Source: a bacterium
GTDB lineage: Bacteria > Electryoneota > RPQS01
Direction: 5' to 3'
Assembly (NCBI GenBank): GCA_016703065.1
Contig: JADJCU010000001.1
Coordinates: 296,526 to 360,525 of the forward strand
Length of the DNA stretch: 64,000 nt
The position numbers and the translations under genes are program-made. Shown one piece after another: positions 7,012 to 62,913 of the stretch. How positions within the stretch are numbered: the stretch's first letter is position 1; every line of letters starts with the position of its first letter. The notes under the pieces are model-generated. The model searched no databases and was not told where the DNA came from. It saw only the letters and a program-made list of their open reading frames with translations.

Positions 7012-7517
7012 AACTGCTGCTCTATTTACTGTGTTCGGCGCTCGGGCTGGGCTGCTCCAAACCTGATCATTCCGCCCCCGGCGTCCAGACACTGCGCACT
7101 GTCTCCCGCGACGATTCACTCTTTCTCGCGGAAGACCTCACCGAGTGGGGCTTTGACTTCTATTCCTATGAGCAATGGGACTCCGGTCTGGTCAAGTTTA
7201 ATCTTGCGCTGTCGTACGACTCGACTAACTCTCAAGCCTGGCACGGCCGTGCGCTAATGCTCGACACCCTGCATTTTGAGCAGGATGCCGAGTTCGCCTA
7301 CCGACAAGCAGAGAAGTTAAACCCGCGCAATAAGCAGGCAATCTGGCACCTGGGCTGTTTTTATGCCCGCGCCGGCGAAAAGGACAAGGCGCTCCGGCAG
7401 CTCCGCACCGTCATTGCCCTCGACTCTTCTTATGCCATCGGCGTTCGCACCGAAGACTGTTGGACGCAACTCTGGCAGGACTCAGATTTCCTCCGAACCG
7501 TTGGCGCGCTGCCTTAG
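7008..7517 (+). CDS. TPR-repeat lipoprotein
   Basis: The ATG overlaps the pyrD stop (ATGA). It has a lipoprotein signal 'MKLLLYLLCSALGLGC|S' and TPR-like helices ('AWHGRALMLDTL..AEFAYRQAEKLNPRNKQAIWHLGCFYARAGEKDKALRQL'). Confidence 0.6.
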   Translation: MKLLLYLLCSALGLGCSKPDHSAPGVQTLRTVSRDDSLFLAEDLTEWGFDFYSYEQWDSGLVKFNLALSYDSTNSQAWHGRALMLDTLHFEQDAEFAYRQAEKLNPRNKQAIWHLGCFYARAGEKDKALRQLRTVIALDSSYAIGVRTEDCWTQLWQDSDFLRTVGALP

Positions 7518-7540
7518 CGCGAATCTACTACCTCAAATCA

Positions 7541-7566
7541 AAGCCCCCGGCATCGCGCCGGGGCTT
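7541..7566. terminator. bidirectional rho-independent terminator between convergent genes
   Basis: GC hairpin AGCCCCCGG..CCGGGGCT lies between the TPR gene (+) and the pepF-like gene (-). T-rich runs follow on both strands. Confidence 0.6.
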
Positions 7567-7574
7567 TCATCTAC

Positions 7575-9494: not shown

Positions 9495-9798
9495 GCCGCT
9501 CGTCTCCTCGCTTCGCTGAATATGTAATTGCTCTGCCAATATTCTAAGAGACTGAATACTAACCCCTTTGTGGCAGAGTTGCAAGCCCCAAACACAACAT
9601 TTTCTTGGCTATTCTCAAACTCATAATATTCAATACTTTTGCGTAGATAATTGAGTTTAGTTTTTCGCAGGCGCGAACCCGCAGGAAGAGGCATTGCAAA
9701 CGGGCCTTGTCAAAACTGACTGGACATGTACCTAATTTGTCCGCCACTTACCGTGTTAGAGACCCGGTACATTCATGGTTTTCTCTGTGCAACATCCC

Positions 9799-21379: not shown

Positions 21380-21420
21380 CCCCCCCATTCTCCGCCGTGA
21401 GAATGGGGGGAGTGCTTTTT
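21380..21420 (+). terminator. rho-independent terminator
   Basis: Perfect 12-bp stem CCCCCCATTCTC/GAGAATGGGGGG followed by AGTGCTTTTT. Confidence 0.8.
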
Positions 21421-41305: not shown

Positions 41306-41327
41306 CCCACGCACAACCCCAAAATAA

Positions 41328-41433
41328 GGCGGGCCGGACATTCCTGTCCGGCCCGCCGTGCTTGCCTATCCAGCCCAATCCGCCAGAGCCCTTGCGCCAC
41401 CGCACTGGGTGCAGCGTCTGCGCTTGCGCAGGC
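41328..41433 (-). repeat. family C repeat copy 1: shared 3'-UTR plus terminator module
   Basis: A ~100-nt block about 93% identical to 42554-42652. It starts directly after the stop of the vWA gene and ends (minus strand) in the hairpin GGCGGGCCGGACA..TGTCCGGCCCGCC followed by TTATTTT. Confidence 0.8.
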
Positions 41434-42467: not shown

Positions 42468-42553
42468 TTTGTTCTCCTTGTGATAGGGTTTCACCGCCTT
42501 ACGACAAGGATATCTGACCACCCCCGAGATCTTACACAACCCCCAAGAGAAAA

Positions 42554-42652
42554 GGCGGGCCGGACATTGCTGCCCGGCCCGCCGCGCTTACCTAGCCAGC
42601 CCAATCCGCCAGAGCCCTTGCGCCAGCGCACTGGGTGCAGCGTCTACGCTGC
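42554..42652 (-). repeat. family C repeat copy 2: shared 3'-UTR plus terminator module
   Basis: See 41328-41433. It directly follows the stop of the 905-aa gene. The terminator hairpin GGCGGGCCGGGCA..TGTCCGGCCCGCC is followed by TTTTCTC (minus strand). Confidence 0.8.
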
Positions 42653-48270: not shown

Positions 48271-48280
48271 ACTTTCTCCC

Positions 48281-48304
48281 GGTGGCACCCGCTGCGGGTG
48301 CCCC
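48281..48304. repeat. family B palindromic repeat, copy 1
   Basis: GGTGGCACCCGCTGCGGGTGCCCC, with core inverted repeat GGCACCCGC-T-GCGGGTGCC. Near-identical copies lie at 59246, 59874 and 62841. Confidence 0.85.
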
Positions 48305-48326
48305 GATCTCTATGCGATACCAACAC

Positions 48327-48360
48327 AAAAGCCCCGCGAAAAATCGCGGGGCTTCTTCTG
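48327..48360 (+). terminator. rho-independent terminator of the CDF gene
   Basis: Hairpin GCCCCGCGA-AAAA-TCGCGGGGC followed by TTCTTCT. Confidence 0.8.
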
Positions 48361-48404
48361 ATCTCCCCCCAAAGTTGCCGCAACTTTGGGGGGACTAAGG
48401 GGGG
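48360..48404 (+). repeat. family A nested-hairpin repeat, copy 1
   Basis: GATCTCCCCCCAAAGTTGCCGCAACTTTGGGGGGACTAAGGGGGG, with a 14-bp perfect stem and a second G6 tract. Confidence 0.85.
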
Positions 48405-48412
48405 CTTCAGGG

Positions 48413-50557
48413 TCAAGGCAACGCAAACACGACGTACGTCCGCTGTTCCGTCGCTGTAAGCAACACATCGTCATCCGTAAACGTCGTTGCCGCCGTCGTG
48501 CCAATCAGCACACTGTTCCCCGGCTCATACTCCTGTGTGTCACCTGCATAAATCTCATAGCCGCTCGCCCCCGGCACCGCGCCCCAATTGAGCAGGATGT
48601 CGTTGTTCGCCGTGTCGTGGTAAATGACCAAGTCATCTACCACCAATGCGCCGCGCTCATATGCGCCGATGTCTGAAAACGCTCCGCTGGGCCGCGCCGT
48701 TCCGTCAAAATCACGCGCAATCATACTCGCCGGATCCGCAGCGTTCACACACGCGCTCGTTCCGCCCAAATGCAAATCTCCGTTTGCGGCATCCGCATAC
48801 TCAGGATCAACATAGAGATTGAAATACTGATCGCACGTATCTCCGTTCACATTCGTCGTCGAAATCGTCCCTAATCCCACCGGGGGAACGCCCCGGAAAT
48901 TCTGACCCGAAAGACCGAAGAAGTCGCAATACTCAATGTCGCCCGTGGCCCCCAAATCAAAATAGATCGCACAGCTCGCCGTGGAATGCGACACAATGCA
49001 GCTCGTCATGGTCAGACTTCCCCCATCCATGAAGATCACTCCGCCCGGATGACCACTCGCGCTGTTATCATACATCGTGCAAAACTCAAACGACGGGCTG
49101 CCGCCTGCGCTATACAGCACGCTGCCCGTGCCATATTGTATTCCTCGATTGAGGTCGTTCCCCGCAAACACGCTGTTCACAATGTACGGCGAAGCCTCTG
49201 CGTAGCAATACAGCGCCGCGCCGAATGTGCTCAGTGTGTTCCATTCCTCTGTCCCCTCTTCATCCCAGACCAGGTAACTCGTGTTCCCGTCGAACTTGAA
49301 GTGACTTACCGTGTCCGCCCCCGAGAAAAAAGACGATTGCCCCTCCCACTCCGTTTCCGTAGTTACCGAGATGCGGACCCCAGCTGCTCGCCACGTTCTC
49401 TTCAAACACGCAGCCGGTAAACCAGTTCCCACCCTTCGAATACACCGCTCCATCTGAAGAGTGGTTGTTGCGAAATGTGCAATTCGTGAAGGTGGTATTC
49501 TCACACAAACTTGCCGCCCCGTATTCTCCAATGTTTCCTTCAAACACGGAATTTGAAATCTCCGCTGTGATCGGATCGAATATCCCCACTCCGCTGCTCC
49601 CGCCTGTCTCATTGGGACCAATCCAACTTGCGCTGTTATTCCTGAGCGTACATGCGTCCATCGTCAACGCCGCGCCGACACACCGCATGCCCCGTCAAAA
49701 CCAAAAGCGGCATGATGATTCGAGATTGTCGTCCCCGTCAGCGACACCACGGAGGTCGGTTCAGCCATGACTCCGCCCAACCCTCCGTCGGGAGTCTGAT
49801 TGTCGTCAATCAAGCATGTGTCAATCGTCGCGACCGTTCCCTCGCGCAAGTAGAGTCCACCGATTACTATGCCCGGACGATTCGATTGAATCTTGCAGTG
49901 CCGCAGGTGAATGGTCGCATTGAGCGTCGCAAACCCACCCCCCTTGGTATTGTATACATAACCGTCGCCGTATACCGTCCCGCCGTTATGCGTGATATCC
50001 GTGTATTCGAGTTCAACATCGCTTTGCTCAAAATACGCTCCGCAACCTCCGCCCGCGTTTGCGGGACTTCCGCCCGCGTGACAGTGGTGAATCCTACTAC
50101 GCGCAATCTCCAAGTCCGTATTGTAGCAATACAATCCGCCACCATAACTTAATGCCCCCGGCCCCGTCGCGCCGCTGTATGTGATACTGCAATAACGCAA
50201 CTCACAATCGGCGTCAGCGTCCACAAACCGTAGCCCCCGCCAACGCGTCGGCGAATCGTAGGGAAACCCACTCGCATCCCCCGTAAACCAAATTGAATCG
50301 CTTTCCGTACCTATCGCTTGCAGTAGGCCATTAATAACCATTTTGAATGAGCCTGCGAAATAAACCCGCACACCCGGCTCAATCTGCAAGGCCTCGCCCG
50401 TCACAACGGTGATGTCTCCACCGTGCACGACATACGGTGAACCCGAGGCGGGCCACACGCCGCTCACATTCCCGGAGGCCACCCAGGTCGTGTCTGCCTG
50501 TGCTGCTTCTCCCCACCACAGAACTACCAATCCGATTAGAACTTGAATAATCTTCAT
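48413..50557 (-). pseudogene. secreted right-handed beta-helix repeat protein, two frameshifts (frame 1 to 2 to 1)
   Basis: Signal MKIIQVLIGLVVLWWGEAAQA. The N-terminus is paralogous to the 24033-25571 gene ('VSG.W....SPY.V.GDI.V......I.PGV.V.F'). The sequence is spread over ORFs 49664..50557, 49260..49688 and 48413..49621. The second shift falls in an A6/T6 run at 49326-49331 ('GGAIVFF|SGADTVSHFKF'). The C-terminal part has 'DLHLGGTSACVNAADP' and an Fn3-like end. Confidence 0.6.
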
Positions 50558-50608
50558 CTTAGCCCTCGATTCGTACCTTTTTCAAGTTGTCCTTGAGCTG
50601 TCCTTCAA

Positions 50609-50635
50609 AATATACTCTAAACCCCCCATTGTCAA
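50609..50635 (-). promoter_or_regulatory. sigma-70-like promoter for the 50557 gene
   Basis: The minus strand reads TTGACA (50630-50635), a 15-17 nt spacer, then TATATT(TT) (50607-50614). Confidence 0.35.
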
Positions 50636-50704
50636 CAGCCATTTTATCGCTCATCCGCAACTTCGGACGCGCCACTGGTCCAGCGCATACTCTGGTGGTG
50701 CAAA

Positions 50705-50720
50705 TGGCCCTGTTGTTGCT
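50705..50720 (+). promoter_or_regulatory. sigma-54 (-24/-12) type promoter upstream of the EBP gene
   Basis: TGGCCC-TGTTG-TTGCT has consensus spacing, 50 nt upstream of ATG 50770. Confidence 0.4.
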
Positions 50721-50769
50721 GTATGAATTCCCGGCAAAGTGGTTCAACGCAACAAACCCGGCGAAAAAC

Positions 50770-52200
50770 ATGCAGGCAACGTTATTAGTAGTGGACGACG
50801 ACCGCGATATTCGCGAAATCATTCGGCAGGTCGCGGAAATCAAAGACTACGAAGTTATTGAGGCTGAAGATGCTACGGTCGGCCTCGAAAAAATGCGCAC
50901 GATGGCACCCGATCTGTCCATCATAGACGTCGGATTGCCGGGCGGAATTGACGGTGTTGAACTCTGTCAACAGATTCATGAAGTCGCACCGCAACATCCC
51001 GTGCTCATTATCAGCGGACAGGCCACGCCCGAAAAGGCCGTGGAGGCGCTCAAGCACGGCGCATTTGACTACCTCGGCAAGCCGCTTAATCTCGAAAAGC
51101 TGATGCTCTTGGTTGATCGCGCCCTCTCGAATGTCGCCACCGCCCGCGAAATCGAGCGCGTCGCCGATGAACGCAAGGCCGTCTACGGCTTTGACCGTCT
51201 GGTCGGCGACTGCAAGCAGATGAATCAGGTCAAAGAGACGGGCCGCAAAGTCGCCGCTGTCCCCTTTGCTACCGTACTGCTAACAGGTGAATCGGGAACT
51301 GGCAAGGAACTCGTGGCGCATGCGGTTCACCTGGCCTCGCCCAATGCCGACAAACCGTTCGTCGAAGTGAACTGCGCCGCCATGCCCGAGAATCTACTCG
51401 AAGCTGAGCTCTTCGGCTATGAGAAGGGCGCGTTCACCGATGCCAAACAACGCAAACGCGGACTCTTTGAAATCGCCGCCGGCGGGACCTTCTTCCTCGA
51501 CGAAATCGGCGAAATGCCGCTCAATCTGCAAGTGAAGCTGCTCAAGGTCATCGAAGAGCGCACCTTCCGCAGAGTCGGGGGCACCCAGCCATTGCAAATG
51601 AAATTCAGATTGATCGCCGCGACCAATGCCAATCTGATGGAGCAGATTGAGTCCGGGAAATTCCGCCGCGATCTCTACTATCGACTTGCCGTCTTCTCGA
51701 TTCATCTGCCGCCGCTGCGGGAACGCGCTCACGATACCGTCGACATCGCGCTCCACTTTATCGAAAAATTCAACCGCGAATTCGGCAAAACCATCAAGGG
51801 TATCGCTCCTGATGCTGAGCGGCTGCTCGTCAGCTACAACTGGCCCGGCAATATCCGCGAACTTCGTAATGCCGTCGAGCGCGCCGTGCTGATTGGCGCT
51901 GGACCCTATATCCAAGCGGCCGACCTGGCCATCCTGCCGATGCAGGAGACGCCCACCCCGAGTCTCGCGTCTGTCCCCGAAAAGGACGTCGACGCGATGC
52001 TCAACAATCCCGACGGCTTCTCCATTGACGTCCCCTCAACCGGTGTCAACATGGAAGAAGTTGAAAAGCAGCTCATCCGAATTGCCATGCGCCACTCTCA
52101 CAACAATGCCTCCGCCGCCGCGAGATTCCTGCGCATGACCCGTGAAACACTCCGCTACCGCCTGAAAAAATACGGCATCCGCGAAGAAATCGAATCCTAA
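50770..52200 (+). CDS. sigma-54-dependent response regulator (NtrC family enhancer-binding protein)
   Basis: Receiver domain ('LLVVDDDRDIRE..DLSIIDVGLPG'), an AAA+ sigma-54 interaction domain ('GESGTGKELVA', 'GAFTDA', 'TFFLDEIGEM', 'RRDLYYRL') and a C-terminal Fis-type HTH. Start moved to ATG 50770. Confidence 0.9.
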   Translation: MQATLLVVDDDRDIREIIRQVAEIKDYEVIEAEDATVGLEKMRTMAPDLSIIDVGLPGGIDGVELCQQIHEVAPQHPVLIISGQATPEKAVEALKHGAFDYLGKPLNLEKLMLLVDRALSNVATAREIERVADERKAVYGFDRLVGDCKQMNQVKETGRKVAAVPFATVLLTGESGTGKELVAHAVHLASPNADKPFVEVNCAAMPENLLEAELFGYEKGAFTDAKQRKRGLFEIAAGGTFFLDEIGEMPLNLQVKLLKVIEERTFRRVGGTQPLQMKFRLIAATNANLMEQIESGKFRRDLYYRLAVFSIHLPPLRERAHDTVDIALHFIEKFNREFGKTIKGIAPDAERLLVSYNWPGNIRELRNAVERAVLIGAGPYIQAADLAILPMQETPTPSLASVPEKDVDAMLNNPDGFSIDVPSTGVNMEEVEKQLIRIAMRHSHNNASAAARFLRMTRETLRYRLKKYGIREEIES

Positions 52201-52263
52201 CCAGCGTACCGCTGGACCTAATCCGCTGACGCAAGCGCTTCTTGACTTGACTCGAAATACAAA

Positions 52264-52300
52264 GCGGCCCGCACAACTCGTGCGGGCCGTCCTGTTTCTG
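52264..52300 (+). terminator. rho-independent terminator of the EBP gene
   Basis: Hairpin GGCCCGCAC-AACTC-GTGCGGGCC followed by GTCCTGTTTCT. Confidence 0.7.
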
Positions 52301-52346
52301 ATCTCCTCCCAAACCTGCGTCGCAGCTTTGGGAGGATTAAGGGGGG
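52300..52346 (+). repeat. family A nested-hairpin repeat, copy 2
   Basis: GATCTCCTCCCAAACCTGCGTCGCAGCTTTGGGAGGATTAAGGGGGG. The C6 arm is CCTCCC and its partner is GGGAGG, a compensatory pair. Confidence 0.85.
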
Positions 52347-52414
52347 TCAAACCGTAGTCACGCCCGCCGCCCAAAAGCGTGCAGCGCAGCGCACTGGGTC
52401 CAGCGGCACGCCGG

Positions 52415-53834
52415 TTACTTCGTTCTTACGAAATCAATCCGGCGATTCTGCTGACGACCTTCGTCGGTGTCGTTCGTCGCAATCGGCTTATCCGGACCGA
52501 AGCCCTTCGTCGTCATGCGTGTCGCTTCGATACCCTTGGCCGCCAACCACGCCTTTACACTTTCCGCGCGCGCCAGCGAGAGCTTCTGATTCATCCCTTT
52601 CTTGCCGCGATTGTCCGTGTGGCCCTGAATCTCAACTTCAAGGTCCGGATTCAGCTTCAGCGTATTGTAAGCCTTCATCAAAATCGCTTCCGACTCCGGC
52701 TTGATGTCCGACTTCGCGGTCTCAAACACGATGCCTTCAAGCGTAATCGCCTGACCCACTTCAGTCACCACGAGCTTCTCGACGTCGTCCTCAGGATTCA
52801 GCGGATTGTCGCCCTTCTTCACTTCCGTGCCGTCGTCAATCGAACCCTTGTCCGTGTCGTTATTCAGCGGATCCGTCTTGTGCGTGTTCACTTCAACACC
52901 ATCCGACAGTCCGTCGCCGTCGCAATCCGCGCGCTTCGGATCCGTCTTGTGCGTCGTCAACTCCGCGCCGTCCTGCAGACCATCGCCGTCCGTATCCGGA
53001 TTTAGCGGATCGGTCGTATACGTCGTGACCTCTTCGCCGTCCTTCAGGCCGTCACCATCCGTATCGGCCTTCAGCGGATCGGTCTTGTGCGTCATCACTT
53101 CCGCGCCGTCCGTCAAACCATCGCCATCCGTATCCGGATTCTTCGGATCGGTCTTCAGCGTGTAATACTCTTCGCCGTCCTTCAGGCCGTCACCGTCCGT
53201 GTCCGGATTCTTCGGATCGAGCCCCAGCTTCTTCTCGTCGCGGTCTGTGATGCCGTCGCCGTCGGTATCCTTGTTCGGATTACCGCGGTGAATACGCAGA
53301 CCGGCCAGAATATTCATGTACGCATCGTCCGTGTCGTCATAGACAGGGTTGATGTCATCCGAGAAGATCATGTTGTAGCCGCCGTGCACGTCAAGCGAGA
53401 TATTCGTCAAGATGATATTGAACACCCAGGCCCAGGGGTACCATGGCATTCCACGAATCCCGCTTCGCTTCCGGGTCGGCCGCCGCCGGTACATCCGACA
53501 CATCGTGATGCAGCATGCCTAAACCCGCGTAGACAAACGGGAACCACTTCTCCTGATGGAACGGCGCGAACCGGGCGCGCAGGTCAATCGGCATGACTTC
53601 GCCCGAGTAGTCGTCGGCTTTCAACCGCGCGAACGCGATCCCTAATTCGAGCTGCAGCGGGTCCAAAATCGGGTAGGCGAAGCTGTGCCGCACGTTTAGA
53701 CCCATGTCCGCACCCTCGGATTCGTTGGTCGGCATGGCGATGCCGGCGCCGAGGTAACCCTCGAGGCCCAGCTCGGTAAACTGCGCCGTCGCAATCAGCG
53801 GCACCAACAGCGACAGCAAAACAATACTTTTCAT
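52415..53834 (-). pseudogene. OmpA-family outer-membrane protein with thrombospondin type-3 repeats, frameshifted
   Basis: The signal MKSIVLLSLLVPLIATAQ plus an 8-strand-barrel-like N-domain lie in ORF 53391..53846. After a shift at about 53418-53440 the protein continues ('NIILTNISLDVHGGY..'). It then has about 7 'DTDGDGL(K/T/Q/S)DG(E/A)E' calcium-binding repeats and an OmpA C-terminal peptidoglycan-binding domain ('GHTDNRGKKGMNQKLSLARAESV'). Confidence 0.7.
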
Positions 53835-53900
53835 CAATTTACACATAGGACACCTGTATGTAGGTTAACACCAATGGCGGACTTCTGGATAAGGTTTAAC

Positions 53901-53929
53901 AATATATCACATCCTACTAACTTCTTCAA
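53901..53929 (-). promoter_or_regulatory. sigma-70-like promoter of the OmpA-family gene
   Basis: The minus strand reads TTGAAG (53924-53929), a 17-nt spacer, then TATATT (53901-53906). Confidence 0.4.
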
Positions 53930-53960
53930 GTTCCCCGGCTTGCAGTTCCGCCCGCCCTCT

Positions 53961-54030
53961 GGTCTCCCCCCAAAGCTTGCCCTCGAACGTAGTGAAGGGT
54001 CGTCCGCGGTTTTGGGGGGACAAAGGGGGG
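53961..54030 (+). repeat. family A nested-hairpin repeat, copy 3 (with ~24-nt internal insertion)
   Basis: GGTCTCCCCCCAAA[GCTTGCCCTCGAACGTAGTGAAGG]GTCGTCCGCGGTTTTGGGGGGACAAAGGGGGG. The flanks (CGCCCGCCCTC.. and ..CCTC) match copy 6. Confidence 0.8.
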
Positions 54031-54202
54031 CCTCGGAAACATGTACGCCGAGCCGGGTTAAGTGCAACGCAACCCGGCCCGAATCTGCAAGGGCGGCAGA
54101 ACAGGCGGCCCCCGCAGCGGAGAGTTTCTCCAATTCCTTCGTTGCCTTGCGCTTCCCCTTTGTCTGCCATACATTGCTTATACAAACTGGAGGAGCACAA
54201 CC

Positions 54203-55306
54203 ATGATTAGAACTTGCATCGGCATATCGCTCGTCTGCATTCTCTTCACTGCGTGTACTGAAGAGGGCGACACATACATCACCAACGTCACATCCCCCGA
54301 AGATTGGCAACCACCGCAAATCGAATGGCGCACTCAACCCGATCCCGAACTGCGCGGCACGGTTGGTGTGGACTTCGCCATCACGGATAGCTCCGAAGTC
54401 ACGGCCATTCGGGCCTATTTGGACGGAGTCGCAACAGACTCAGCATTCACATCACCCTATCGTTTCTCGCTCATTACGGATTCATTGCTCGACGGTGTCC
54501 ACATCGTCGAAATTCGCGCAACCGACGAGTATGGTAATCTCGGAATCAGCCCGATCCTGCGCATAAATGTATCCAACTCCGTCGCCCAGGGACCCCGCCT
54601 AATCTGGGTTCCCGATGAGTTTGCGCGTATTCAGGATGCCATCAACGCCGCCACTGATTTCGATACCATTCGAGTCCGATCAGGAACCTACTACGAAACG
54701 CTGAATACGTTCGGAAAAGGAATCTGGCTCGAATCGGAACATGGGCCGCTTTCATGTAGTATTAATGCTGACGGGGCGAGCAACAGCATCTACTGCCCTG
54801 CATCAGACCAATTTGTTTGTGTCCGCGGCTTTCACATGACGGGTGGTACATACTTGGTGTATCTGGGCGACGGCTCCCGCGTAAACTTCTACAACAACTA
54901 CCTTGCCTTGGATTCAGTGCGTTGGCTAATGGTCACCAGTTATTCAAACGGAGACATTGCAAACAACTTGTTTTCTGGTTCACGCACGGCCATACAGCTT
55001 AGCTACCACTGGGGCAGCTTTTTCAATAACATACTTCAGCTTGCATCAAATGTCGCGCTTTGGAACGCAGCTTTGGCGAGGAACCCGGTCGAGTACGGAC
55101 ACAATTTGTTCTGGCAGAATCATCAGAATTACCAATCATTTGAGCCGGGAATCGGAGATTTGGACTCGGACCCCTTTTTGGATCTGATTGATGGCAGACT
55201 CATGGATGGTTCTCCCGCTTTCGACGCTGGTGATCCCCGAGTCCTTGATCGAGATAGCTCCATATCAGATATCGGGCCCTTTGGTGGACCGTGGGCATAC
55301 TACTAA
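54203..55306 (+). CDS. lipoprotein with an Ig-like N-domain and right-handed beta-helix repeats
   Basis: GGAGGAG RBS, start at ATG 54203 and lipobox 'ILFTAC'. 'IRVRSGTYYETL' plus a C-terminal 'DPFLDLIDGRLMDGSPAFDAGDP..DIGPFGG' are typical of beta-helix proteins. Confidence 0.55.
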   Translation: MIRTCIGISLVCILFTACTEEGDTYITNVTSPEDWQPPQIEWRTQPDPELRGTVGVDFAITDSSEVTAIRAYLDGVATDSAFTSPYRFSLITDSLLDGVHIVEIRATDEYGNLGISPILRINVSNSVAQGPRLIWVPDEFARIQDAINAATDFDTIRVRSGTYYETLNTFGKGIWLESEHGPLSCSINADGASNSIYCPASDQFVCVRGFHMTGGTYLVYLGDGSRVNFYNNYLALDSVRWLMVTSYSNGDIANNLFSGSRTAIQLSYHWGSFFNNILQLASNVALWNAALARNPVEYGHNLFWQNHQNYQSFEPGIGDLDSDPFLDLIDGRLMDGSPAFDAGDPRVLDRDSSISDIGPFGGPWAYY

Positions 55307-55328
55307 TCAAGCGGAAAAGGAGTTGATT

Positions 55329-56657
55329 ATGTCATGGGGTAACGCACAGAACGCTTGGAACGATCAGGATATGAATTCAAGCGGCAAGAAACTCGCTGTT
55401 ACTGGAGATTCAGGAGGAACCAACTTTCAAGCTGAATTCGCGGACACCAATGCCGCGGGTAACGCCGTTAAGGTGGACGGCAAAATCCAAATTGCACGGG
55501 GAGGAGATACGTTCGGGGTCATCAAACCCGACACGGTGGGCGAGCGAGAAATTGCGATCAACACGAGCGATGGGGATCCCAACATCCGCATTGGTAGCGC
55601 GGGTGCGCAGGGCAATACTTGCTACATCAACTCGCAGAAGACGTACATCGGAGGCGTAACGGCCGATGAGCAGTACCGCGCAGCAATCAAGGGACCGCTA
55701 AAAGTCGGCGTGGATGACATCAACGAAACTGCCCTCAACGTGCACGGCAATGCCGAAGTCCTGAGTACAATCTACACTGACAAAGTGGACTCACTCGCTG
55801 TCGGGCATGACCTGATCCTTGGCGACATCGACGCAACTTCCAACGTACATGTGGGGAGGTTCGCCTCGAATATCTTGCTGGCGGCGCAGGGTGCAGGCGC
55901 GATCGTCTCAATCAGAGGCCCGGTCATTGTCAGCGACGGCGGACAACAGCGTCCCGCAAGCTTGTCTGTCGCGGGAAATATCACCGGTGACTCATTGGGC
56001 AGTGGTGGCGACCTCGACGTCGCGGGCGAACTCGATTGTGAAGGCAACGCCGACATCGCCGGAAGCACGCAAATGCACGGCGCCCTGACGGTTGGAACAT
56101 CCCAAGCAAACGCGAACGCAACGATCAACGGTACTCTAACCACCGCCAATGCAGAGGTTACCGATACTCTAACCACTGCCAATGCGGAAGTCAACGGCAC
56201 TCTAACCACAGATAATGCGACCGTGAACGGCATTCTGACTGCTGACTCACTTCTTGCCGGTGATTTGACCGTTAATGGCGCTGTCGAAGTGCCGAACAAA
56301 TTCAAGATTTCAGACGCAATCGAATGTCAAGTGGACGCTCACTTCGGAGCCGATGCCTACGTGTCGGGTAAGACGAATCTCGACAATGACCTTGCGGTCG
56401 CCGGGCGAGCGGCCCTCAATGAAGATGTTGATGTGGGTGGCAAGTTCACGGCCTCGGGTGCCACCTCTCTGAACGGGGAACTCGAAGTCCAACAGCAATC
56501 CCAATTTCATGCACGGACCCATCACTTGAACGGCGTTGGGCTGACCGCTCCCGGAACGAGCTTCACCGGAATCATCTCCCAGAATAACCGACTCGAGATG
56601 TTCGTCGGTGGAGCCATGCGCTTCTACGTAGACAGCACCGGAGGTCACAATGCATAG
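55329..56657 (+). CDS. hypothetical beta-solenoid/fibre-like protein without signal peptide
   Basis: AAAGGAG RBS before ATG 55329. Repetitive 'xGxLTTxNAxVxGxLT' segments (e.g. 'INGTLTTANAEVTDTLTTANAEVNGTLTTDNATVNGILTADSLLAGDLTVNGAVEV') suggest a solenoid. No family was recognised. Confidence 0.45.
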   Translation: MSWGNAQNAWNDQDMNSSGKKLAVTGDSGGTNFQAEFADTNAAGNAVKVDGKIQIARGGDTFGVIKPDTVGEREIAINTSDGDPNIRIGSAGAQGNTCYINSQKTYIGGVTADEQYRAAIKGPLKVGVDDINETALNVHGNAEVLSTIYTDKVDSLAVGHDLILGDIDATSNVHVGRFASNILLAAQGAGAIVSIRGPVIVSDGGQQRPASLSVAGNITGDSLGSGGDLDVAGELDCEGNADIAGSTQMHGALTVGTSQANANATINGTLTTANAEVTDTLTTANAEVNGTLTTDNATVNGILTADSLLAGDLTVNGAVEVPNKFKISDAIECQVDAHFGADAYVSGKTNLDNDLAVAGRAALNEDVDVGGKFTASGATSLNGELEVQQQSQFHARTHHLNGVGLTAPGTSFTGIISQNNRLEMFVGGAMRFYVDSTGGHNA

Positions 56658-56708
56658 GCTCCCCCCCCCCCGCGCAAAGAAGACTGACGTAATTCCCCCA
56701 AACTAAAA

Positions 56709-56735
56709 CGGCGACCCCATCGGGCCGCCGCTTTT
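56709..56735 (+). terminator. rho-independent terminator
   Basis: Hairpin GGCGACCC-CATC-GGGCCGCC (one mismatch) followed by GCTTTTACTT. Confidence 0.55.
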
Positions 56736-56808
56736 ACTTACTGCGCCTGCGAAGCGCTCTGGCGTCTACGTTTCAAGTGGCATAGCGCAACACCCGCTTA
56801 TCAAGCGG

Positions 56809-57402
56809 TTAGTTCGTCGGACGATTGAATTCGAGTTCGAGCTCGACATCCACGTTATCGCCCACGACCAAGCCGCCTGCGTCCAGCGTCTTGTTCCAGC
56901 TCACGCCGAAGTCCTGACGATTGATCGTCGTCTTCGCGGTGCCGCCCGTCACCACCGCGCCGCCCCACGGCGACGGAATCTCCTGATTGAAACCTTCCAC
57001 CTCAAACGTCACGCCCTTCGTGACGCCGCGAATCGTCAGATCCCCCGTCAGCGTCGCCTTGCCCGGCGCCGTCTGCTTCGCGCTCTTCGAGACAAACGTC
57101 ATCGTCGGGAACTTCTCGACGTCAAAAAAGTCCGCGCTCTTCAAATGGCCGTCGCGCTTCTCATCGCGCGTGTCCACCGAACCTACCTGCACCGTGAAGT
57201 TCGCCTGCATTGTCGAAAGGTCCGCCGGATTAAAGCTCGCGGTACCCGCGTAGTCCTTGAACTCGCCGCGTGTCGTCGACACCACGAGGTGCTTCACCGC
57301 AAAATTCACCGACGAGTGTCCCGTGTCCAAATTCCAGTCCGCCGCAAACGCGTTCGCTCCGGCAATCACCAATCCCAATGCGATCAGCTTCAGTGTCTTC
57401 AT
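56809..57402 (-). CDS. YceI family periplasmic polyisoprenoid-binding protein
   Basis: Signal MKTLKLIALGLVIAGANAFA. 'W.LD..HS.V.F.V.HL.VS...G.F' and the rest of the YceI lipocalin-like pattern are present. Confidence 0.85.
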   Translation of the reverse strand: MKTLKLIALGLVIAGANAFAADWNLDTGHSSVNFAVKHLVVSTTRGEFKDYAGTASFNPADLSTMQANFTVQVGSVDTRDEKRDGHLKSADFFDVEKFPTMTFVSKSAKQTAPGKATLTGDLTIRGVTKGVTFEVEGFNQEIPSPWGGAVVTGGTAKTTINRQDFGVSWNKTLDAGGLVVGDNVDVELELEFNRPTN

Positions 57403-57504
57403 CAGGGTGTCTCCCTTTTCATGTGTGAATTGTGTTTCTATCGTCTATGCGCGATCTTCTCTTCTAAACTCGTGCGGAGCCTCCTCCCTCATCATCCCCC
57501 GCTA

Positions 57505-57963
57505 TCAAGCGGGTCCAGCGGCACGCTGGCCTACTTGTCTTAAGTACTCCGCCATCTTCTCAAGCTCAAACGGCGACAGCACCACCATCGAGTCCGTAAT
57601 CACCGGCACAATCTCCGGGAAGACCGTCTTGATGAACGCCTCCCCCGTCTTAGTCAGCCGCACCCACACGAACCGCCGATCCTCACTCGACCGCTCCCGA
57701 GTAATCAGCTTCCGCTTCTCCAGATTGTCCACCACCAGCGTGATGTTCCCGCTGCTCTTCAGCAGCTTCTGCCCCAGCTCGTTCTGATGCAGCTCGCCCA
57801 AATGCAGCAGCGCCTCCAACACGCCAAACTGACTGATCGTCAGATCGTGCTTGGCCAACGCCCGCGTCACCCGCGCCGTCACCGAGTCCGCCGCCCGCAT
57901 CAGCTTGATGTATGCGTCCAAGGCTCGTACCTCTGACGCGCTTCCCGTGTGCTTGGTTCCCAT
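57505..57963 (-). CDS. MarR family transcriptional regulator
   Basis: Winged-HTH pattern 'LTISQFGVLEALLHLGELHQNELGQKLLKSSGNITLVVDNLEKRKLITRERSSEDRR'. It lies directly upstream of the YceI gene on the same strand. Confidence 0.8.
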   Translation of the reverse strand: MGTKHTGSASEVRALDAYIKLMRAADSVTARVTRALAKHDLTISQFGVLEALLHLGELHQNELGQKLLKSSGNITLVVDNLEKRKLITRERSSEDRRFVWVRLTKTGEAFIKTVFPEIVPVITDSMVVLSPFELEKMAEYLRQVGQRAAGPA

Positions 57964-57978
57964 ATATGCCGATGTTAG

Positions 57979-57993
57979 TTAGTTTAATACTAA
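57979..57993. promoter_or_regulatory. palindrome, candidate MarR operator
   Basis: TTAGT-TTAAT-ACTAA lies 16-30 nt upstream of the MarR start codon. Confidence 0.3.
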
Positions 57994-58135
57994 GATAATC
58001 AGTTTTAGCAATTCCGCAAGTAGTTCGCAGTGCATTGTAAATTCGTGAGTTGGATTTTGAGCCGAGACGTGGCAAGATGTGGCCCTTTGAGGGGTCACCA
58101 ATCTGAGGAGGCGAGAGGAGTGGTTTGATGTGAAA

Positions 58136-59221
58136 CTATCGGCTCGGATGCCTCAACAGTGAGCGGTCCAGCGCAGGGATGTTCGGCCGTCCGCACAGGG
58201 CCATCGCGATCTTCAGTTCGGTCAACAGCAGATCGACGATGCGATTCACCCCTGCCGCGCCCGAGACCGTCAGCCCCCAGATATAGGGCCGACCGATCAG
58301 CACCGCCGTCGCACCGGCGGCCAGCGCTTTCAGGATGTCCGTCCCGCGCCGAATTCCCCCGTCGAACAGCACCGGAATCCGGTCATCTACGGCATGAGCC
58401 ACCTCCGGAAGCATTTCGATTGTTGCGGGTGCCGTATCGAGGTTCCGCGCCCCGTGATTGCTCACGATGAGTCCGTGTACACCCACATGCACGGCCTGTT
58501 CCGCGTCCTTGGGATGCAGGATCCCTTTCAAGAGCACCGGAATCTTTGCCACGCCGAGCATCCATTCGATGTCCTTCCACGTCATCGCCGGATTTACCAG
58601 CGGGTAGTAGATGCCGTCGAGGTCGGTACCATGTCCCGTGACTTTCTGTGCTTCGGGGACATCCCGCAGCATCGCCCGTTCCAGACCCGCTGGCAGGGCG
58701 AATCCCGCGCGGGTTTCGCGCACGCGGTTTCCCAGCACCGGCGTATCGACTGTAATGATGAGCGCCTTCGCTCCCGCTCGTTCGACCCGGGCGATGAGCT
58801 CTTTCGTGCATTCCCGATCGCGCTGCACGTAGAGCTGATACCACAGCCGCGCCTCCGGCACCTCTTTGGCGATCTCCTCAATCGTCAGGTTCGCCATCGT
58901 GCTCACGCAGTACGTCGCATCGGCCCACACCGCCCCCTGTGCCGTCTCGATCTCCCCTTGCGGGTGAAACAGCTTATGATAGGCCACCGGCGCGAGCAGA
59001 ATCGGATGCGCATAGCGCTGTTCGAGGAACGACACGCTCGTGTCGATTTGCGACACGTCGCGCAGCACATTTGGCAGCAGCTGAATGCGGTCGAACGCCT
59101 GTCGATTCTCGGCCAGCGTCAGTTCATCCCCGGCGCCGCTATCGAGGTATTCCCACGCCATCGCCGTCATCCGCTCCCGCGCCGGCGCGGCGAAATCGTT
59201 CACTTGCAAAGTTGGATACAT
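58136..59221 (-). CDS. FMN-dependent alpha-hydroxy acid dehydrogenase/oxidase (L-lactate dehydrogenase / glycolate oxidase family)
   Basis: 'AWEYLDSGAGDE', 'ITVDTPVLGNR', 'KGILHPKDA', 'VSNHGARNLD' and 'DGGIRRGTDILKALAAGA'. Start moved to ATG 59221; the longer ORF merely reads through repeat B2. Confidence 0.85.
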   Translation of the reverse strand: MYPTLQVNDFAAPARERMTAMAWEYLDSGAGDELTLAENRQAFDRIQLLPNVLRDVSQIDTSVSFLEQRYAHPILLAPVAYHKLFHPQGEIETAQGAVWADATYCVSTMANLTIEEIAKEVPEARLWYQLYVQRDRECTKELIARVERAGAKALIITVDTPVLGNRVRETRAGFALPAGLERAMLRDVPEAQKVTGHGTDLDGIYYPLVNPAMTWKDIEWMLGVAKIPVLLKGILHPKDAEQAVHVGVHGLIVSNHGARNLDTAPATIEMLPEVAHAVDDRIPVLFDGGIRRGTDILKALAAGATAVLIGRPYIWGLTVSGAAGVNRIVDLLLTELKIAMALCGRPNIPALDRSLLRHPSR

Positions 59222-59245
59222 AGTAAAGTCTTCTCTTTTCTTCCC

Positions 59246-59269
59246 GGCGGCACCCGCTGCGGGTGCCCC
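59246..59269. repeat. family B palindromic repeat, copy 2
   Basis: GGCGGCACCCGCTGCGGGTGCCCC, in the 5' leader of the 58136-59221 gene. Confidence 0.85.
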
Positions 59270-59811
59270 GCCTATCAACTACAAGGTCGTGCTTCCAAGT
59301 ACGACGCACTTCTCAAACAATCGGCCACTCCGGTATTGCCGCGTCAATCTCTTTCATCAATCGAATCGTCTCGCCCAGCGCCATCACCGTTTTCGCATAG
59401 TGCCGAATCTCATCAAACGCGAGCGTCCGCTCTTTGCGGTCCTTGAGCCACTTGTTGCAAACCTGATAACCCCCGACATGAAACTCCCACACTTCAGGCG
59501 CAACAGGCTCGAACCACTGCTTCTTGTTGATATACACGCGCCGCAGTTGATCATTGTATTCCACCTTCACCACCATGTTATCTCCCTTTTCAGGAAACAC
59601 CACCGGAGCTTTGTCAAGTTTCGGATGCTCCAAGAGATGATACTGCACCAACTCATACCCCAGCGGCACCAGCTTGCTGAACAATTCAAGATTCGATGTC
59701 AGCGGCACACGCGGAAAATCAATTTTCAAAAACTCCTTATACCGCTCCCGATAAGTCGGCGCATGAAACACCGCGTAGATATAATAAAAAATGTCTTCGG
59801 GGCCAAACTCT

Positions 59812-59857
59812 GATCTCCCCCCAAATCTGTCCGCAGATTTGGGGGGATTAAGGGGGG
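59812..59857 (+). repeat. family A nested-hairpin repeat, copy 4 (inside the RM coding sequence)
   Basis: GATCTCCCCCCAAATCTGTCCGCAGATTTGGGGGGATTAAGGGGGG, translated on the minus strand as 'PLNPPKSADRFGGRSE'. Confidence 0.85.
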
Positions 59858-59873
59858 TTGCCTTCTTCTTCGC

Positions 59874-59897
59874 GGCGGCACCCGCTGCGGGTGCCCC
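59874..59897. repeat. family B palindromic repeat, copy 3 (inside the RM coding sequence)
   Basis: GGCGGCACCCGCTGCGGGTGCCCC, translated as 'GAPAAGAA'. Confidence 0.85.
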
Positions 59898-61916
59898 GCT
59901 TTTCCCCCTCGCTTTAGCGGGGGGGGCAGGGGGGGGTAATCCACTTCCCCCCTCCTCCACAAACGTCAACCCCAACTTCCCCGCAAACTCCGCCACAAAC
60001 TTCGCATCCAAATTCGGCTTCCGCGGTGAGCCGTCGGCGGGGTAAAGGTAGAGAGGGAAAAAGTAATTGACCTCTTTCATTGAAACGGTATGATGTGTCG
60101 AAATTTGCCTCGTACACAATACATGCTCGAAACCGCGACTAATCTCCACTGTCCTAGTTGTTGACAGTGCAAGGTTTGGTCCCGCGAGCATGTGTTGCAT
60201 AACTTCGATGCGGGGCCGCTCAATTTCAGGAGGATAATAGAAGATGCATCTCATATCAAAAGGCCGGTAGAGAACTTGTGGGAATGAAGCATCTTCTTTG
60301 ACAGCCTTCTTTAGTTGTTTGACCATGCGCGCCTGGACTTCGTCATCGGTGATTCGAAATGCGCGCAAAGTGTCATCTTCAGTCTTGATCGCGGAGTTGA
60401 TTCTCTTGGTCAACACTCTTCTCGATCAAAGTCTATTAAGAAGGAATCGTTGGCAGTAACCAACCCCACAGAATTGGTATTGAATACTTTTTGAACAGAG
60501 GCGCCTTCGTTGTATTCGTCACCTTCTTCAGATTCAGACTTCGTAAACATGTAGAACGGTTTGCTCGGTTCAATCCTCTGCCATTCCGTATCCTTGTGGT
60601 CGTGCGCACCCAGCCACTCATATTTACTCTCTCGCTTACCCCATAACTCGCCTCGCTGAATAACAGCGTCGTCATTGTCGTGAGATTTGACAAAAAGGCC
60701 AACGGATACACCCTGCATAATATCAAAAACATTCTCGTCCTTGCCGCCGTCAGGAGATTGCTCTTTCTTCTTGCTATTGCCATGCAAATCTAACAAGTAA
60801 AGTTCATCAAACGTGCGTTGCAAACTGCGCCTCATCCCGCGAAACGTTGGATTGTCAAGATATCCATGACTTGTTATGAACGCTAAGATACCTTCTGCTC
60901 TTGTATCCCCAACTGCCCATTGCGCTATCCGCCATTGCCCATACCGTAAGAACTTTACATAATCATCCTGTAGCCACTTGGGGTTCTTTTCACCAAGCGG
61001 CTCCCCGTCAACAAAATAGTAATCTTTAATCAGTTTGCTAATCCACGGGCCGCTATTTGCCGAGTGGCCTGAATAAGGTGGATTACCAAGCACAACCATG
61101 ATCGGCAAACGATTCTTGACCGTTGCGGCGGCGTTTGCTTCTTGCGATATGATCCTCATTGTACCAAAGAACTCTTCGGCTTCATAGATCGTCTCCTCCA
61201 AACTATTCGTCAGATACACATGCAGACGCTGATCCTTTTCAATCTCGTACCCCCACTTTTCGCGGAGCTTCGGGTCAAGGTCGTGTCCGGCCAATTGCAT
61301 CGCCAACTTCAGATGCGCAACCGCATACGGAGCCATCTGCAACTCAAAGCCGTAGATGCGCGGAATCAAATGGTCTTTGACAAACGCCTGCCACGACCCC
61401 GCGTCGTTACGCTCCATGAACCGGTTGCGAATCAAATCCACGACCGCATAGAGAAACGTCCCCGTCCCGCACGCCGGATCAAGAATCAATATTTTGGGCA
61501 GTTTCCGCTTGACAAATTTATCTCCCTCTTTGACCTCAACTTCAATCGTGGACGTATCGGCCAAGCCGTCCTTCAAGCCGAACTTTTCCTTTAGCAGAAT
61601 ATCCACCGACCGCACGATATACGACACCACCGGCTCCGGCGTGTAATAGACACCGCGCCGCTTGCGCTCCTTGGGATCGTATTCAGACAGAAACGTCTCG
61701 TAGAAATGCAGAATCGGGTCTTCCTGCTTCGTGCGCTTCCCAAATGAAGCCAAAATCGCCTCAATATCCGAATGCGCCAGCACGGCCGTCAAGTCATCCA
61801 CAAACCCGATAAACGGCTCATCTTCGAGCGAGGTGGAGTGCATGGTCTCGAAGAGATTGCGGAGGAAGGGATTGCTCTTGGGGATTTCGCGGGCTGCTCC
61901 GGTGCGGGTGAACTCC

Positions 61917-61962
61917 GGTCTCCCCCCAAGTCCGTCTGCGGATTTGGGGGGACTAAGGGGGG
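61917..61962 (+). repeat. family A nested-hairpin repeat, copy 5 (inside the RM coding sequence)
   Basis: GGTCTCCCCCCAAGTCCGTCTGCGGATTTGGGGGGACTAAGGGGGG, translated as 'PLSPPKSADGLGGRP'. Confidence 0.85.
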
Positions 61963-62737
61963 CGTCTGCGTGTTGTATTCGCGCCGCAAACAATCCATAT
62001 CCGAGGGTTTGCGCGAACATATCCGCGAATTGCGCGTCGGTAATGTCCGGCAACAAGGTGCGCTCAAAAGCGGACTTCAGGTCCTGCATCAGTTCGGACG
62101 GTGTCCCGTCCGCAAACGTATTCGTAATCACCCGGTCAATGTTCTTGCACAAACCGGCCATGCGGGAAGCCAGCTCTTTGGGCGAATTAATTTCCCGCAC
62201 GTCCTGAGCCAGAAACGACTCGAGTAACTCGGTGAGTTCAGCTTCGCCATCCTTCAGAATTTTAATCTTCTTACCGGACTTCTTCGCCAGCCGCACCGTC
62301 CGCCGCTTTTCACCCTTGACATACCAGCGGAACTCGAGATAATCGGTCAAGATGAGATTCGGAAGCTGCAAGTAGCGTTCAAGCTGCTCTGACTTCTCAA
62401 TCTTGCTCAACTCTTCGCCGACCTTTTTGGTCTCGACATACCCCACCGGCAGATGAATCTGTCCCCGCACCTTTCTTCGAATCACAAAATCCGGCGCGCC
62501 GACCTTGATCTGCTTAGGGTCGTTCGACACGAGCAACTCTTTGCCGAATGATTCCAATAAGCCCTGAATCGCAGGCCTGTGCGTGTGCTCCGTATCATCT
62601 CCCAGCGCGATCTTCTCTTGCAGGGATTTCAAATAGTTCTTCAGCGCGTCCGGCATGTGCCTCAATTCCAATCTGTGATTCCGCTTTCCTCCTAATCTAC
62701 TCCCCTCACCCCACTTCCGCAAGCGCGCCCGCCCTCA

Positions 62738-62783
62738 GGTCTCCCCCCAAAATCGTCTGCGGTTTTGGGGGGACAAAGGGGGG
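62738..62783 (+). repeat. family A nested-hairpin repeat, copy 6
   Basis: GGTCTCCCCCCAAAATCGTCTGCGGTTTTGGGGGGACAAAGGGGGG, in the 5' leader of the RM gene. Confidence 0.85.
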
Positions 62784-62840
62784 CCTCCGCTCTCCCCGTC
62801 CTCCGTTCACGCGGGAAGGGCCGGCGGATGGGGTTCCCCC

Positions 62841-62864
62841 GGCGGCACCCGCTGCGGGTGCCCC
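62841..62864. repeat. family B palindromic repeat, copy 4
   Basis: GGCGGCACCCGCTGCGGGTGCCCC, in the 5' leader of the RM gene. Confidence 0.85.
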
Positions 62865-62913
62865 AATCCTTTGTTCTCGCCTCTCTATCTCTTGCCCAAA
62901 TGTATAACATATT

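Follow-up and report, generated by a model that had tools for sequence, protein, structure and literature searches.

The window analysed here, a 64-kb stretch of a bacterial contig (JADJCU010000001.1, positions 296,526 to 360,525), carries six copies of a short hairpin repeat, which we call family A. The repeat is a structured, polar family in which structure rather than sequence is conserved, and its copies have been acquired or lost whole, with no duplication of the target. On balance, we lean towards the reading that family A is a non-autonomous miniature hairpin element resembling the repetitive extragenic palindromes (REPs) of other bacteria. What is new here are two copies translated in frame within a gene (copies 4 and 5), a 39-nt difference between alleles without duplication at copy 4, and a strand bias of the repeat in related genomes.

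Six copies of a structured hairpin repeat

The repeat unit reads G(A/G)TCTC, C6, AAA, a variable short palindrome, TTT, G6, A(C/T)(T/A)AA and a second G6. Its 3' half, TTGGGGGGAYWAAGGGGGG, occurs 6 times in the window, as compared with 0.05 occurrences expected from shuffles, and its 5' end, TCTCCCCCCAA, occurs 9 times when at most one mismatch is allowed, as compared with 1.26 expected. The copies were placed by reading each of the six sites. A covariance model was trained on 20 copies, the six of the window together with fourteen taken from related genomes. Its full-length matches in the 64 kb numbered exactly six, all of them on the + strand and with scores of 56-81 bits. The model gave no full-length match at positions 1-48,000 of the window and zero matches in 676 kb of unrelated metagenomic loci. 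The original prediction, which had placed six + strand copies in the window and none in its first 48 kb, was thus reproduced by both site reading and the covariance model. The weaker hits of the model were the hairpin on the opposite strand, an ordinary terminator hairpin at 21381-21410 and a relic at ~59.9 kb.

All six copies lie on the + strand, namely copy 1 (48360-48404; GATCTC-C6-AAAGTTG-CCG-CAACTTT-G6-ACTAA-G6; 80 bits; predicted folding energy of -24.9 kcal/mol), copy 2 (52300-52346; 66 bits), copy 3 (53961-54030; 56 bits), copy 4 (59812-59857), copy 5 (61917-61962) and copy 6 (62738-62783; 73.6 bits), and they share 65-93% pairwise identity. Copy 2 has CCTCCC as its C-tract, which is answered by GGGAGG in the first G-tract only. 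Copy 3 holds a 24-nt hairpin insert nested in its loop at 53978-54001 (TGCCCTCGAACGTAGTGAAGGGTC), so that the internal insertion of ~24 nt noticed earlier is real.

Each copy consists of a short 5' foot (CNGR-TCTC), a 13-15 bp hairpin and an unpaired 3' tail. The outer stem of the hairpin is formed by C6 and G6, while the inner stem is variable in sequence yet paired; the tail comprises an A/T-rich 5-nt linker and the second G6, which is invariant across the aligned copies. In the alignment of 20 copies, 96% of the cells of the 14-bp helix were paired, and 5 of the 14 pairs were changed on both sides. The covariation score was reached by none of 500 shuffles, and shifting the partner column abolished the signal. 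The covariation therefore reflects a conserved structure, as had been proposed, and the changes in the further copies are compensatory and not random. The inner-stem types GTTG/CAAC and TCTG/CAGA are both found in the window and in one related metagenome-assembled genome, and a third compensated stem type, ATACCC/GGGATAT, is on a viral contig; the inner-stem variants and the CCTCCC/GGGAGG compensation first quoted for the window copies are as described. The mismatch spectrum, read for the strand that folds, comprises 5 G·T and 3 A·C mismatches and does not single out either strand; the collection scan (see below) was biased in this respect by its search pattern. The predicted folding energies of the window copies range from -23.5 to -30.7 kcal/mol, with folding z-scores of -2.5 to -3.3 in five of the six; copy 3, with its nested insert, has a z-score of -0.8. 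For copies 1, 4 and 5, the complementary strand is predicted to fold about equally stably.

It had also been suggested that the second G6 could pair with the same C6, allowing two mutually exclusive hairpins. This idea is unsupported, since the second G6 is unpaired, the only compensated tract change (copy 2) has the first G-tract alone as its partner, and hairpin 1 (14 bp, about -25 kcal/mol) predominates in the predicted ensemble. The pairing of C6 with the second G6 was dropped because it showed no covariation, as was a closing GGUC/GGCC stem that appears in some predicted folds.

Sorting tails for type IX secretion are found on many proteins encoded in the window. The genes on either side of copies 1 and 2 are convergent; both copies are located 8-68 nt past the stop of the minus-strand gene and abut GC-rich hairpins with T-rich tails on both strands, in agreement with their earlier placement right after terminators. 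Copy 1 directly follows the hairpin at 48331-48352 and is located 8 nt past the stop codon (48413-48415) of a minus-strand beta-helix gene; copy 2 directly follows a bidirectional terminator at 52264-52290, between the convergent genes of a sigma-54 activator (+) and an OmpA/TSP3 protein (-). Copy 3 lies between divergent genes, and copy 6 is downstream of a histidine-kinase gene and ~80 nt upstream of the start of a restriction-modification gene with N6_Mtase and Type_ISP_C domains.

Copies 4 and 5 lie within this restriction-modification gene, inside the minus-strand open reading frames (ORFs) 59313-60416 (Type_ISP_C domain) and 60410-62722 (N6_Mtase), respectively. Their location in coding sequence, which had been seen before, holds, and both are translated in frame, copy 4 as TPLNPPKSADRFGG (in the context ..TPLNPPKSADRFGGRSE..) and copy 5 as ..APLSPPKSADGLGGRPE.., in linkers that are rich in P, G and A and variable in length among homologues. 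In-gene copies persist only where the reading frame is kept, in flexible protein linkers. The gene (type ISP/IIG-like) consists of two ORFs of 770 and 367 aa that overlap by 7 nt (60410-60416), and its homologues are single proteins of ~1,100 aa; the split gene is either a frameshifted pseudogene or the result of a sequencing error in the assembly.

Gain and loss of copies and the replication strand

The syntenic relatives L117 (GCA_964269295.1) and L118 were obtained via the restriction-modification protein. In relatives, family A was found at both orthologous and non-orthologous positions, which bears out the expectation that relatives would carry the motif. After the cation-efflux gene, the window has the long-loop form, and L117 and L118 have the short-loop form. 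Ahead of the restriction-modification gene, the window has copy 6, L117 has no copy, and L118 has an ortholog of copy 6 (9753-9795, minus strand) with compensated inner-stem differences. At the N-terminal linker of the gene, the window has family A (copy 5), L118 has the short-loop form and L117 has a different palindrome (family B, see below). The C-terminal linker of the window holds copy 4 together with an older three-tract element, a relic of the form C5-TCGCTTTAGC-G8-CA-G8-TAA (59904-59939, + strand; in-frame peptide LPPPAPPAKARG; 11 bits). The relic is orthologous to L118 12720-12752, where it occurs without copy 4, and L117 has neither.

The comparison of window 59313-62722 with L117 10001-13255 and L118 10001-13321 revealed that the restriction-modification gene is a mosaic, in which blocks of 90-99% DNA identity adjoin blocks ~45% identical to the relatives. 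This pattern suggests recent recombination or domain swapping between lineages, and it makes the C-terminal site informative. The empty alleles at the copy 4 site read GAAGAAGAAGGCA^GGGAGATCAGA, and the window adds 39 nt (59820-59858) at ^, a segment that is missing from the related alleles of both L117 and L118. One flank is 89% identical over 150 nt, ending precisely at the junction, and on the other side the adjoining 14 nt are identical; no target-site duplication was found in comparison with the L117 and L118 alleles. Copy 4 is a clean 39-nt insertion or deletion with respect to the related allele.

The left-flank motif GATCTCCC (59812-59819) is already present in both empty alleles. Likewise, TCTGATCTCCC, which resembles the left end of the element, pre-exists on the + strand at the empty site, and its CCC becomes half of the C6 stem arm once the site is filled. 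The left flank CTCNGR/TCTCCC, originally reported as recurring beside the copies, does recur, and the empty site at copy 4 indicates that it is at least partly pre-existing target sequence and not element. Judged from these alleles, the motif at the empty site may be either a target or the stump of an older copy; L118 carries GATCTCCCCC at this site, so that the shared left flank could be an older-copy remnant.

We found no family A module in the loci of 80 distant restriction-modification homologues (44-49% identity, the 676 kb of metagenomic loci mentioned above), which indicates that the elements belong to the genome lineage and not to the gene family. The possibility that the element is intrinsic to this gene family was rejected on this basis. 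A metagenome search for close restriction-modification relatives gave a best match that was 49% identical and no usable filled/empty pair.

The replication strand was inferred from GC skew, and loci with an absolute skew of at least 0.05 were counted. The + strand of the window is C-rich throughout (skew about -0.13), in both the blocks of + genes and the blocks of - genes, and all six copies have their G-rich strand on +; where they lie in or beside genes, the C-rich complement is on the minus strand. In the window lineage and its long-loop relatives, the G-rich strand of the repeat was on the locally C-rich (lagging) strand at 12 of 12 loci (32 copies to 0, p = 0.0005). When all taxa were considered, among the matches listed in the collection scan, 31 loci were concordant and 13 were not (p = 0.01). 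Orientation with respect to the direction of the flanking or enclosing gene showed a weak bias: the copies of relatives occur in either sense relative to flanking genes, and convergent and divergent intergenic sites numbered 18 and 8, respectively, by crude gene calls.

The G-rich strand is the lagging-strand sequence, i.e., the leading-strand template. The statement that all copies share one orientation regardless of gene direction was correct in that all lie on the + strand, and the uniformity is now seen to track the GC-skew replication strand rather than to be a matter of chance. Such a link suggests that a single-strand step coupled to replication is involved, or that a structure-prone G-strand is selected against on the lagging-strand template.

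The three-tract design elsewhere and neighbouring repeats

A collection with one genome per species was scanned with the pattern TTGGGGGGAYWAAGGGGGG, and the upstream C-tract was not demanded. The scan gave at least 116 loci, as compared with ~17 chance matches estimated for the whole collection under uniform base composition. Among the matches listed, 80 loci were titled, comprising ~26 cyanobacterial, ~25 Bacteroidota and 5 Chloroflexota loci with the rest scattered, and 8 loci came from two assemblies that are labelled Alphaproteobacteria and are actually syntenic with the window. Among the same matches, a C-tract was present within 40 nt upstream in 103 of 127 distinct copies, as compared with 1 of 127 downstream, and loop lengths were bimodal, at 2-8 or 16-22 nt. 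The core design of C-tract, loop, G6, A/T linker and G6 has the same polarity in Cyanobacteria, Bacteroidota, Chloroflexota and others, and the window lineage is one branch of this wider set of elements.

Variants of the design were found in several of these groups. One Bacteroidota assembly has perfect palindromes, C6-TTTAT-C6-loop-G6-ATAAA-G6. In Cyanobacteria, the modules occur as inverted pairs, as in REPINs, and their loops hold transposons with inverted ends and 8-9 bp target duplications. Such transposons, of 130-230 nt with ends such as GCAGGGCYGTTTCRTT, split the C-arm from the G-arm in L056 (~7360-7677), L105 (~5040-5357), L006 and L018, which suggests that the hairpin loop is an insertion hot spot. 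The insertion of other elements into REPs is a published behaviour. The core is matched by 32 viral contigs, one of which carries a bona fide long-loop copy. In relatives, many copies lie 6-13 nt past a stop codon, and multiple family A copies occur per 8-kb locus, as compared with six copies in 14.4 kb of the window.

Several observations concern phage-type loci. Locus L050 (1-8000, CAZPKG01), which belongs to a related assembly, is a Mu-like prophage-type operon with 4-5 copies at gene junctions; its products are a DDE-like transposase (552 aa), an AAA protein (441 aa) and small phage proteins. The copies terminate the upstream ORFs in frame (..TPLNPPVNGGRPE*), and the GGAGGG arm, which is ribosome-binding-like, is located 8 nt before the ATG of the next gene. 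A shorter motif, TTTCCCC-TT-GGGGGG-ATTAA-GGGGGG-TTTTA, was noticed in L139, L144, L035 and further loci of viral or enterobacterial origin, where related phage contigs and an Enterobacter genome have it at a constant position. It could be a phage regulatory site of unrelated origin, with the G6-N5-G6 core shared by coincidence.

Family A clusters with other small hairpin repeats and with terminators. Family B, a second small repeat, is a perfect palindrome, GGCGGCACCCGCTGCGGGTGCC, with conserved flanks. Its four window copies (48273-48311, 59238-59276, 59866-59904 and 62833-62871) are all in the last 16 kb, and three of the four are within 100 nt of a family A copy. Family B encodes the in-frame peptide GAPAAGAAAKK in the restriction-modification ORF, and in L117 a copy lies at the site that holds copy 5 in the window. 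The possibility that family B is a sigma-54 promoter (TGGCAC...TGC) was rejected on inspection, the spacing being wrong. Family C, a third small hairpin repeat with a consensus of roughly GTCATCCTGAAC-N-AGTGAAGGAT, is represented in the window by 53978-54001, in the loop of copy 3. It also occurs in L118, L011, L091, L043 and L060; in relatives it is often directly 5' of family A, and it is nested in family A in L060 as well, which is from an unrelated marine assembly. A 99-nt repeat (41326-41424 and 42552-42650, 93% identical) starts with the hairpin GGCGGGCCGGACA...TGTCCGGCCCGCC, and a fragment of its tail recurs at 52387-52405, just right of copy 2. The tandem 69-nt repeats at 52850-53228, in the minus-strand OmpA-family gene, are ordinary coding sequence for bacterial TSP3 (thrombospondin type 3) calcium-binding repeats.

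Known repeat families, rival explanations and significance

No described family had been recognised in the original prediction, and this assessment stands, the copies being without the tags of the published REP super-families. Rfam gave 0 matches at the gathering threshold in the window and 16 related or other loci, an E-value search of 48-63.2 kb gave sub-threshold chance hits only, and no paper containing any of six exact forms of the G6-N5-G6 core was found in the searchable literature. Family A resembles REPs and REPINs, which are mobilised by RAYT (TnpA-REP, HUH Y1) nucleases, in being a short (21-65 nt) structure-conserved hairpin with a short unpaired conserved 5' foot, present in many dispersed copies that are mostly downstream of genes and occasionally in frame within them. 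The family is also a target for other insertion elements, and its cyanobacterial module versions are inverted pairs. Unlike REPs, it has a 3' tail (A/T linker and second G6) with no REP counterpart, and in the window and related loci its copies are not inverted pairs but singlets in one orientation. It also differs in its foot. What defines the REP GTAG super-family is a GT[AG]G tetranucleotide on the 5' side of the hairpin foot, at a distance of 0-2 nt, and neither GTAG nor GTGG was found there in the 20 aligned copies, whose 5' side reads CNGR-TCTC-C6.

The CGTC-tagged REPs, which include RPE-4 and RPE-6 of Rickettsia, combine stems of 8-9 bp, in which the first two pairs are A-T, with loops of 4-5 nt and a CCA tail; the tag (or TGTC) often degenerates to CCTC, and the Bacteroidetes/Chlorobi group is among the hosts (Di Nocera et al. 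2013, PMC3733652). These stem-loops have no dedicated transposase and insert in frame in functional genes (PMC3733652). Family A is likewise a tagged stem-loop with in-frame insertions within genes and with no dedicated transposase found in the fetched loci, but its 13-15 bp stem opens with C6/G6, its foot is TCTC preceded by CNGR and its tail is AYWAA-G6. No CGTC-type tag, stem or tail was found in the 20 aligned copies, and their CYTC motifs are in the outer flanks only. Family A works like a REP, yet lacks the defining features of both published REP super-families. The hairpins associated with class 3 TnpA-Y1 proteins have an atypical, non-GTAG foot, 5' CnGA, and may be present in a large number of copies (Quentin et al. 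2018, PMC6006769). Family A similarly carries CNGR (CTGA, CCGA, CAGA, CCGG and others) before the stem; it differs from these hairpins in that its foot is 4 nt from the stem and ends in G as often as in A, and no class 3 gene was seen. No C6/G6 hairpins were found in the supplementary table of PMC6006769.

Family A resembles IS200/IS605 elements in an orientation tied to the replication strand, in a hairpin that would be recognised as a structure and, at the single clean junction, in the lack of target-site duplication and in a conserved sequence on one flank only that pre-exists at the empty site. The presence of TCTGATCTCCC in the empty alleles agrees with an IS200/IS605 target at this junction, where the flank may also be an older-copy remnant. 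Unlike these elements, family A has one hairpin and not distinct left and right end hairpins, its conserved flank is longer than 4-5 nt and is part of the stem, and the sign of its strand bias is not the simple expectation. The element has no coding capacity, and neither a tnpA or tnpB gene nor a full-length relative was found in the fetched loci. In behaviour, the closest parallel is the small dispersed repeats (SDR) of Nostoc, which are attributed to Elhai et al. and are reported to be <50 nt, apparently mobile and nested in the hairpins of other repeats; their insertions reportedly leave genes intact. Family A differs from SDR in coming from an uncultivated bacterium with a type IX secretion system and in its three-tract C/G/G design.

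Under the reading of family A as a non-autonomous REP-like element, the hairpin would be recognised as a folded single strand during replication. Its copying or movement would depend on an enzyme acting in trans, for which an HUH/Y1 nuclease of the RAYT or IS200 type is the most plausible candidate. The TCTCCC beside the element would be the target, or a sequence that base-pairs with the element, its CCC completing the C6 stem arm, and would help to define the insertion point. In this region, the copies probably have no regulatory role and are simply passengers. REPs inserted in frame within genes (PMC3733652) and REP-like hairpins with non-GTAG feet (PMC6006769) are documented precedents. The earlier label of a REP/MITE-like mobile element (MITE, miniature inverted-repeat transposable element) is supported by these data in its REP-like part, as represented by the structure, the discrete indel and the dispersed copies, and fails for a DDE-type MITE at copy 4, where there is no duplication. 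More tentatively, and with the odds in our estimate against it, the design C5-6, loop, G6, A/T-rich 3-7 nt linker, G6 could define an undescribed REP-like super-family beside the GTAG and CGTC classes that moves as single-stranded DNA. Such a super-family may be common to Cyanobacteria, Bacteroidota, Chloroflexota and several uncultivated lineages, and may be carried by some phages; it may leave no target duplication, and the TCTCCC-type motif beside which it would move may complete the stem of the element itself. On this view the invariant second G-tract may be a recognition or cleavage tail, or may fold onto the C6/G6 stem as an intramolecular purine-motif triplex, the layout of the module matching Y-loop-R-loop-R, the textbook foldback-triplex layout.

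Several observations weigh against the REP-like reading. A scan for HUH...Y/Y1 motifs in 1.2 Mb of fetched loci found none, so that the RAYT/TnpA-REP or IS200/IS605-type gene to be looked for did not appear. There is one clean filled-versus-empty comparison only, with a shared flank that is perhaps an older-copy remnant. Several orthologous copies are retained, although the restriction-modification proteins are just 63-69% identical, which could mean host-level selection, and the 65-93% identity among the window copies gives no sign of a recent burst. The copies of the lineage are all one-orientation singlets, whereas mobile REP units, in the best-studied cases, come as inverted pairs, and IS200/IS605 elements depend on a different hairpin at each end. 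Furthermore, the sign of the strand bias differs from the simple IS608 expectation, as the strand with the conserved flank 5' of the element would lie on the leading-strand template.

An unlikely, though not negligible, alternative is that family A is an RNA or DNA structure of any origin that is selected by the host and kept at particular gene boundaries, where it would act in mRNA 3'-end stabilisation, termination or sequestration of ribosome-binding sites for translational coupling. The location of copies 1 and 2 between a stop codon and a bidirectional terminator, the many relatives' copies just past stop codons and the excess of convergent over divergent sites (18 versus 8) agree with this, as do the orthologous copies that persist with compensated stems, the L050 element that ends the upstream ORF and places GGAGGG 8 nt before the next ATG, and the known effects of REPs on mRNA stability, termination and translation. 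However, orientation tracks the replication strand and not the direction of transcription, copies lie in either sense relative to flanking genes, no regulatory logic is obvious for the linker copies or for the 39 nt by which the alleles differ, and a simple stabiliser hairpin leaves the invariant second G6 unexplained. The strand bias would also fit a spread that needs no enzyme, by template switching or gene conversion at stalled forks from a microhomology seed such as TCTGATCTCCC, with slippage and palindrome correction maintaining the C/G tracts. We consider this quite improbable. The empty copy 4 site does share an identical stretch of 11 nt with the left flank of other copies, target-site duplication is absent, different subfamilies take each other's place both behind the cation-efflux gene and N-terminally in the restriction-modification gene, and the latter gene is visibly mosaic; but the right side of the copy 4 junction shows no matching homology, and the occurrence of the same polar three-tract design in distant phyla and of insertions at sites with unrelated flanks is hard to explain in this manner.

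Two further explanations are unlikely, namely a miniature transposon of the DDE type and a two-state switch resembling a riboswitch. The former would be a cut-and-paste element that relies on a DDE transposase and has the C6AAA and TTTG6 arms as its terminal inverted repeats. The arms are indeed inverted repeats of 13-15 bp, and CYTCNG direct repeats flank several copies (e.g., CCTCCG on both sides in L118), but the clean junction of copy 4 has no duplication, the inner arm covaries instead of being conserved, and the element is asymmetric, with a conserved tail on one side. A strand-specific orientation is also unexpected for double-strand cut-and-paste, and this explanation is very improbable to us. 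The CYTCNG repeats were examined as a target duplication and rejected, being contradicted by the copy 4 junction and missing on the right-hand side in about a third of the copies. A MITE should show both terminal inverted repeats and a target-site duplication, and here the inverted arms were found and no duplication was seen at copy 4. The switch, a riboswitch- or attenuator-type RNA with two states in which C6 would pair alternately with the first or second G6, seems hardly credible. It would account for the invariance of the second G6, and two copies are upstream of genes; against this are the dominance of hairpin 1 in the predicted ensemble and the sole tract covariation, which joins C6 to the first G-tract. 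The copies inside genes and after terminators are, moreover, in antisense, and there was neither an Rfam match nor a consistent downstream gene.

Family A repeats have practical consequences for annotation, as in metagenome-assembled genomes they give rise to ORFs that are spurious or extended and to peptide inserts rich in P and G, such as "PLNPP...GGRPE". More generally, small hairpin repeats shape bacterial genomes through transcript ends, rearrangements, the attraction of insertion sequences and added peptide segments. No class other than GTAG/RAYT is known to have a mechanism that is worked out. The clean insertion junction, the perfect strand bias in the informative loci and the cross-phylum design make the mover of non-GTAG REP-like hairpins, and the strand that it uses, directly testable.

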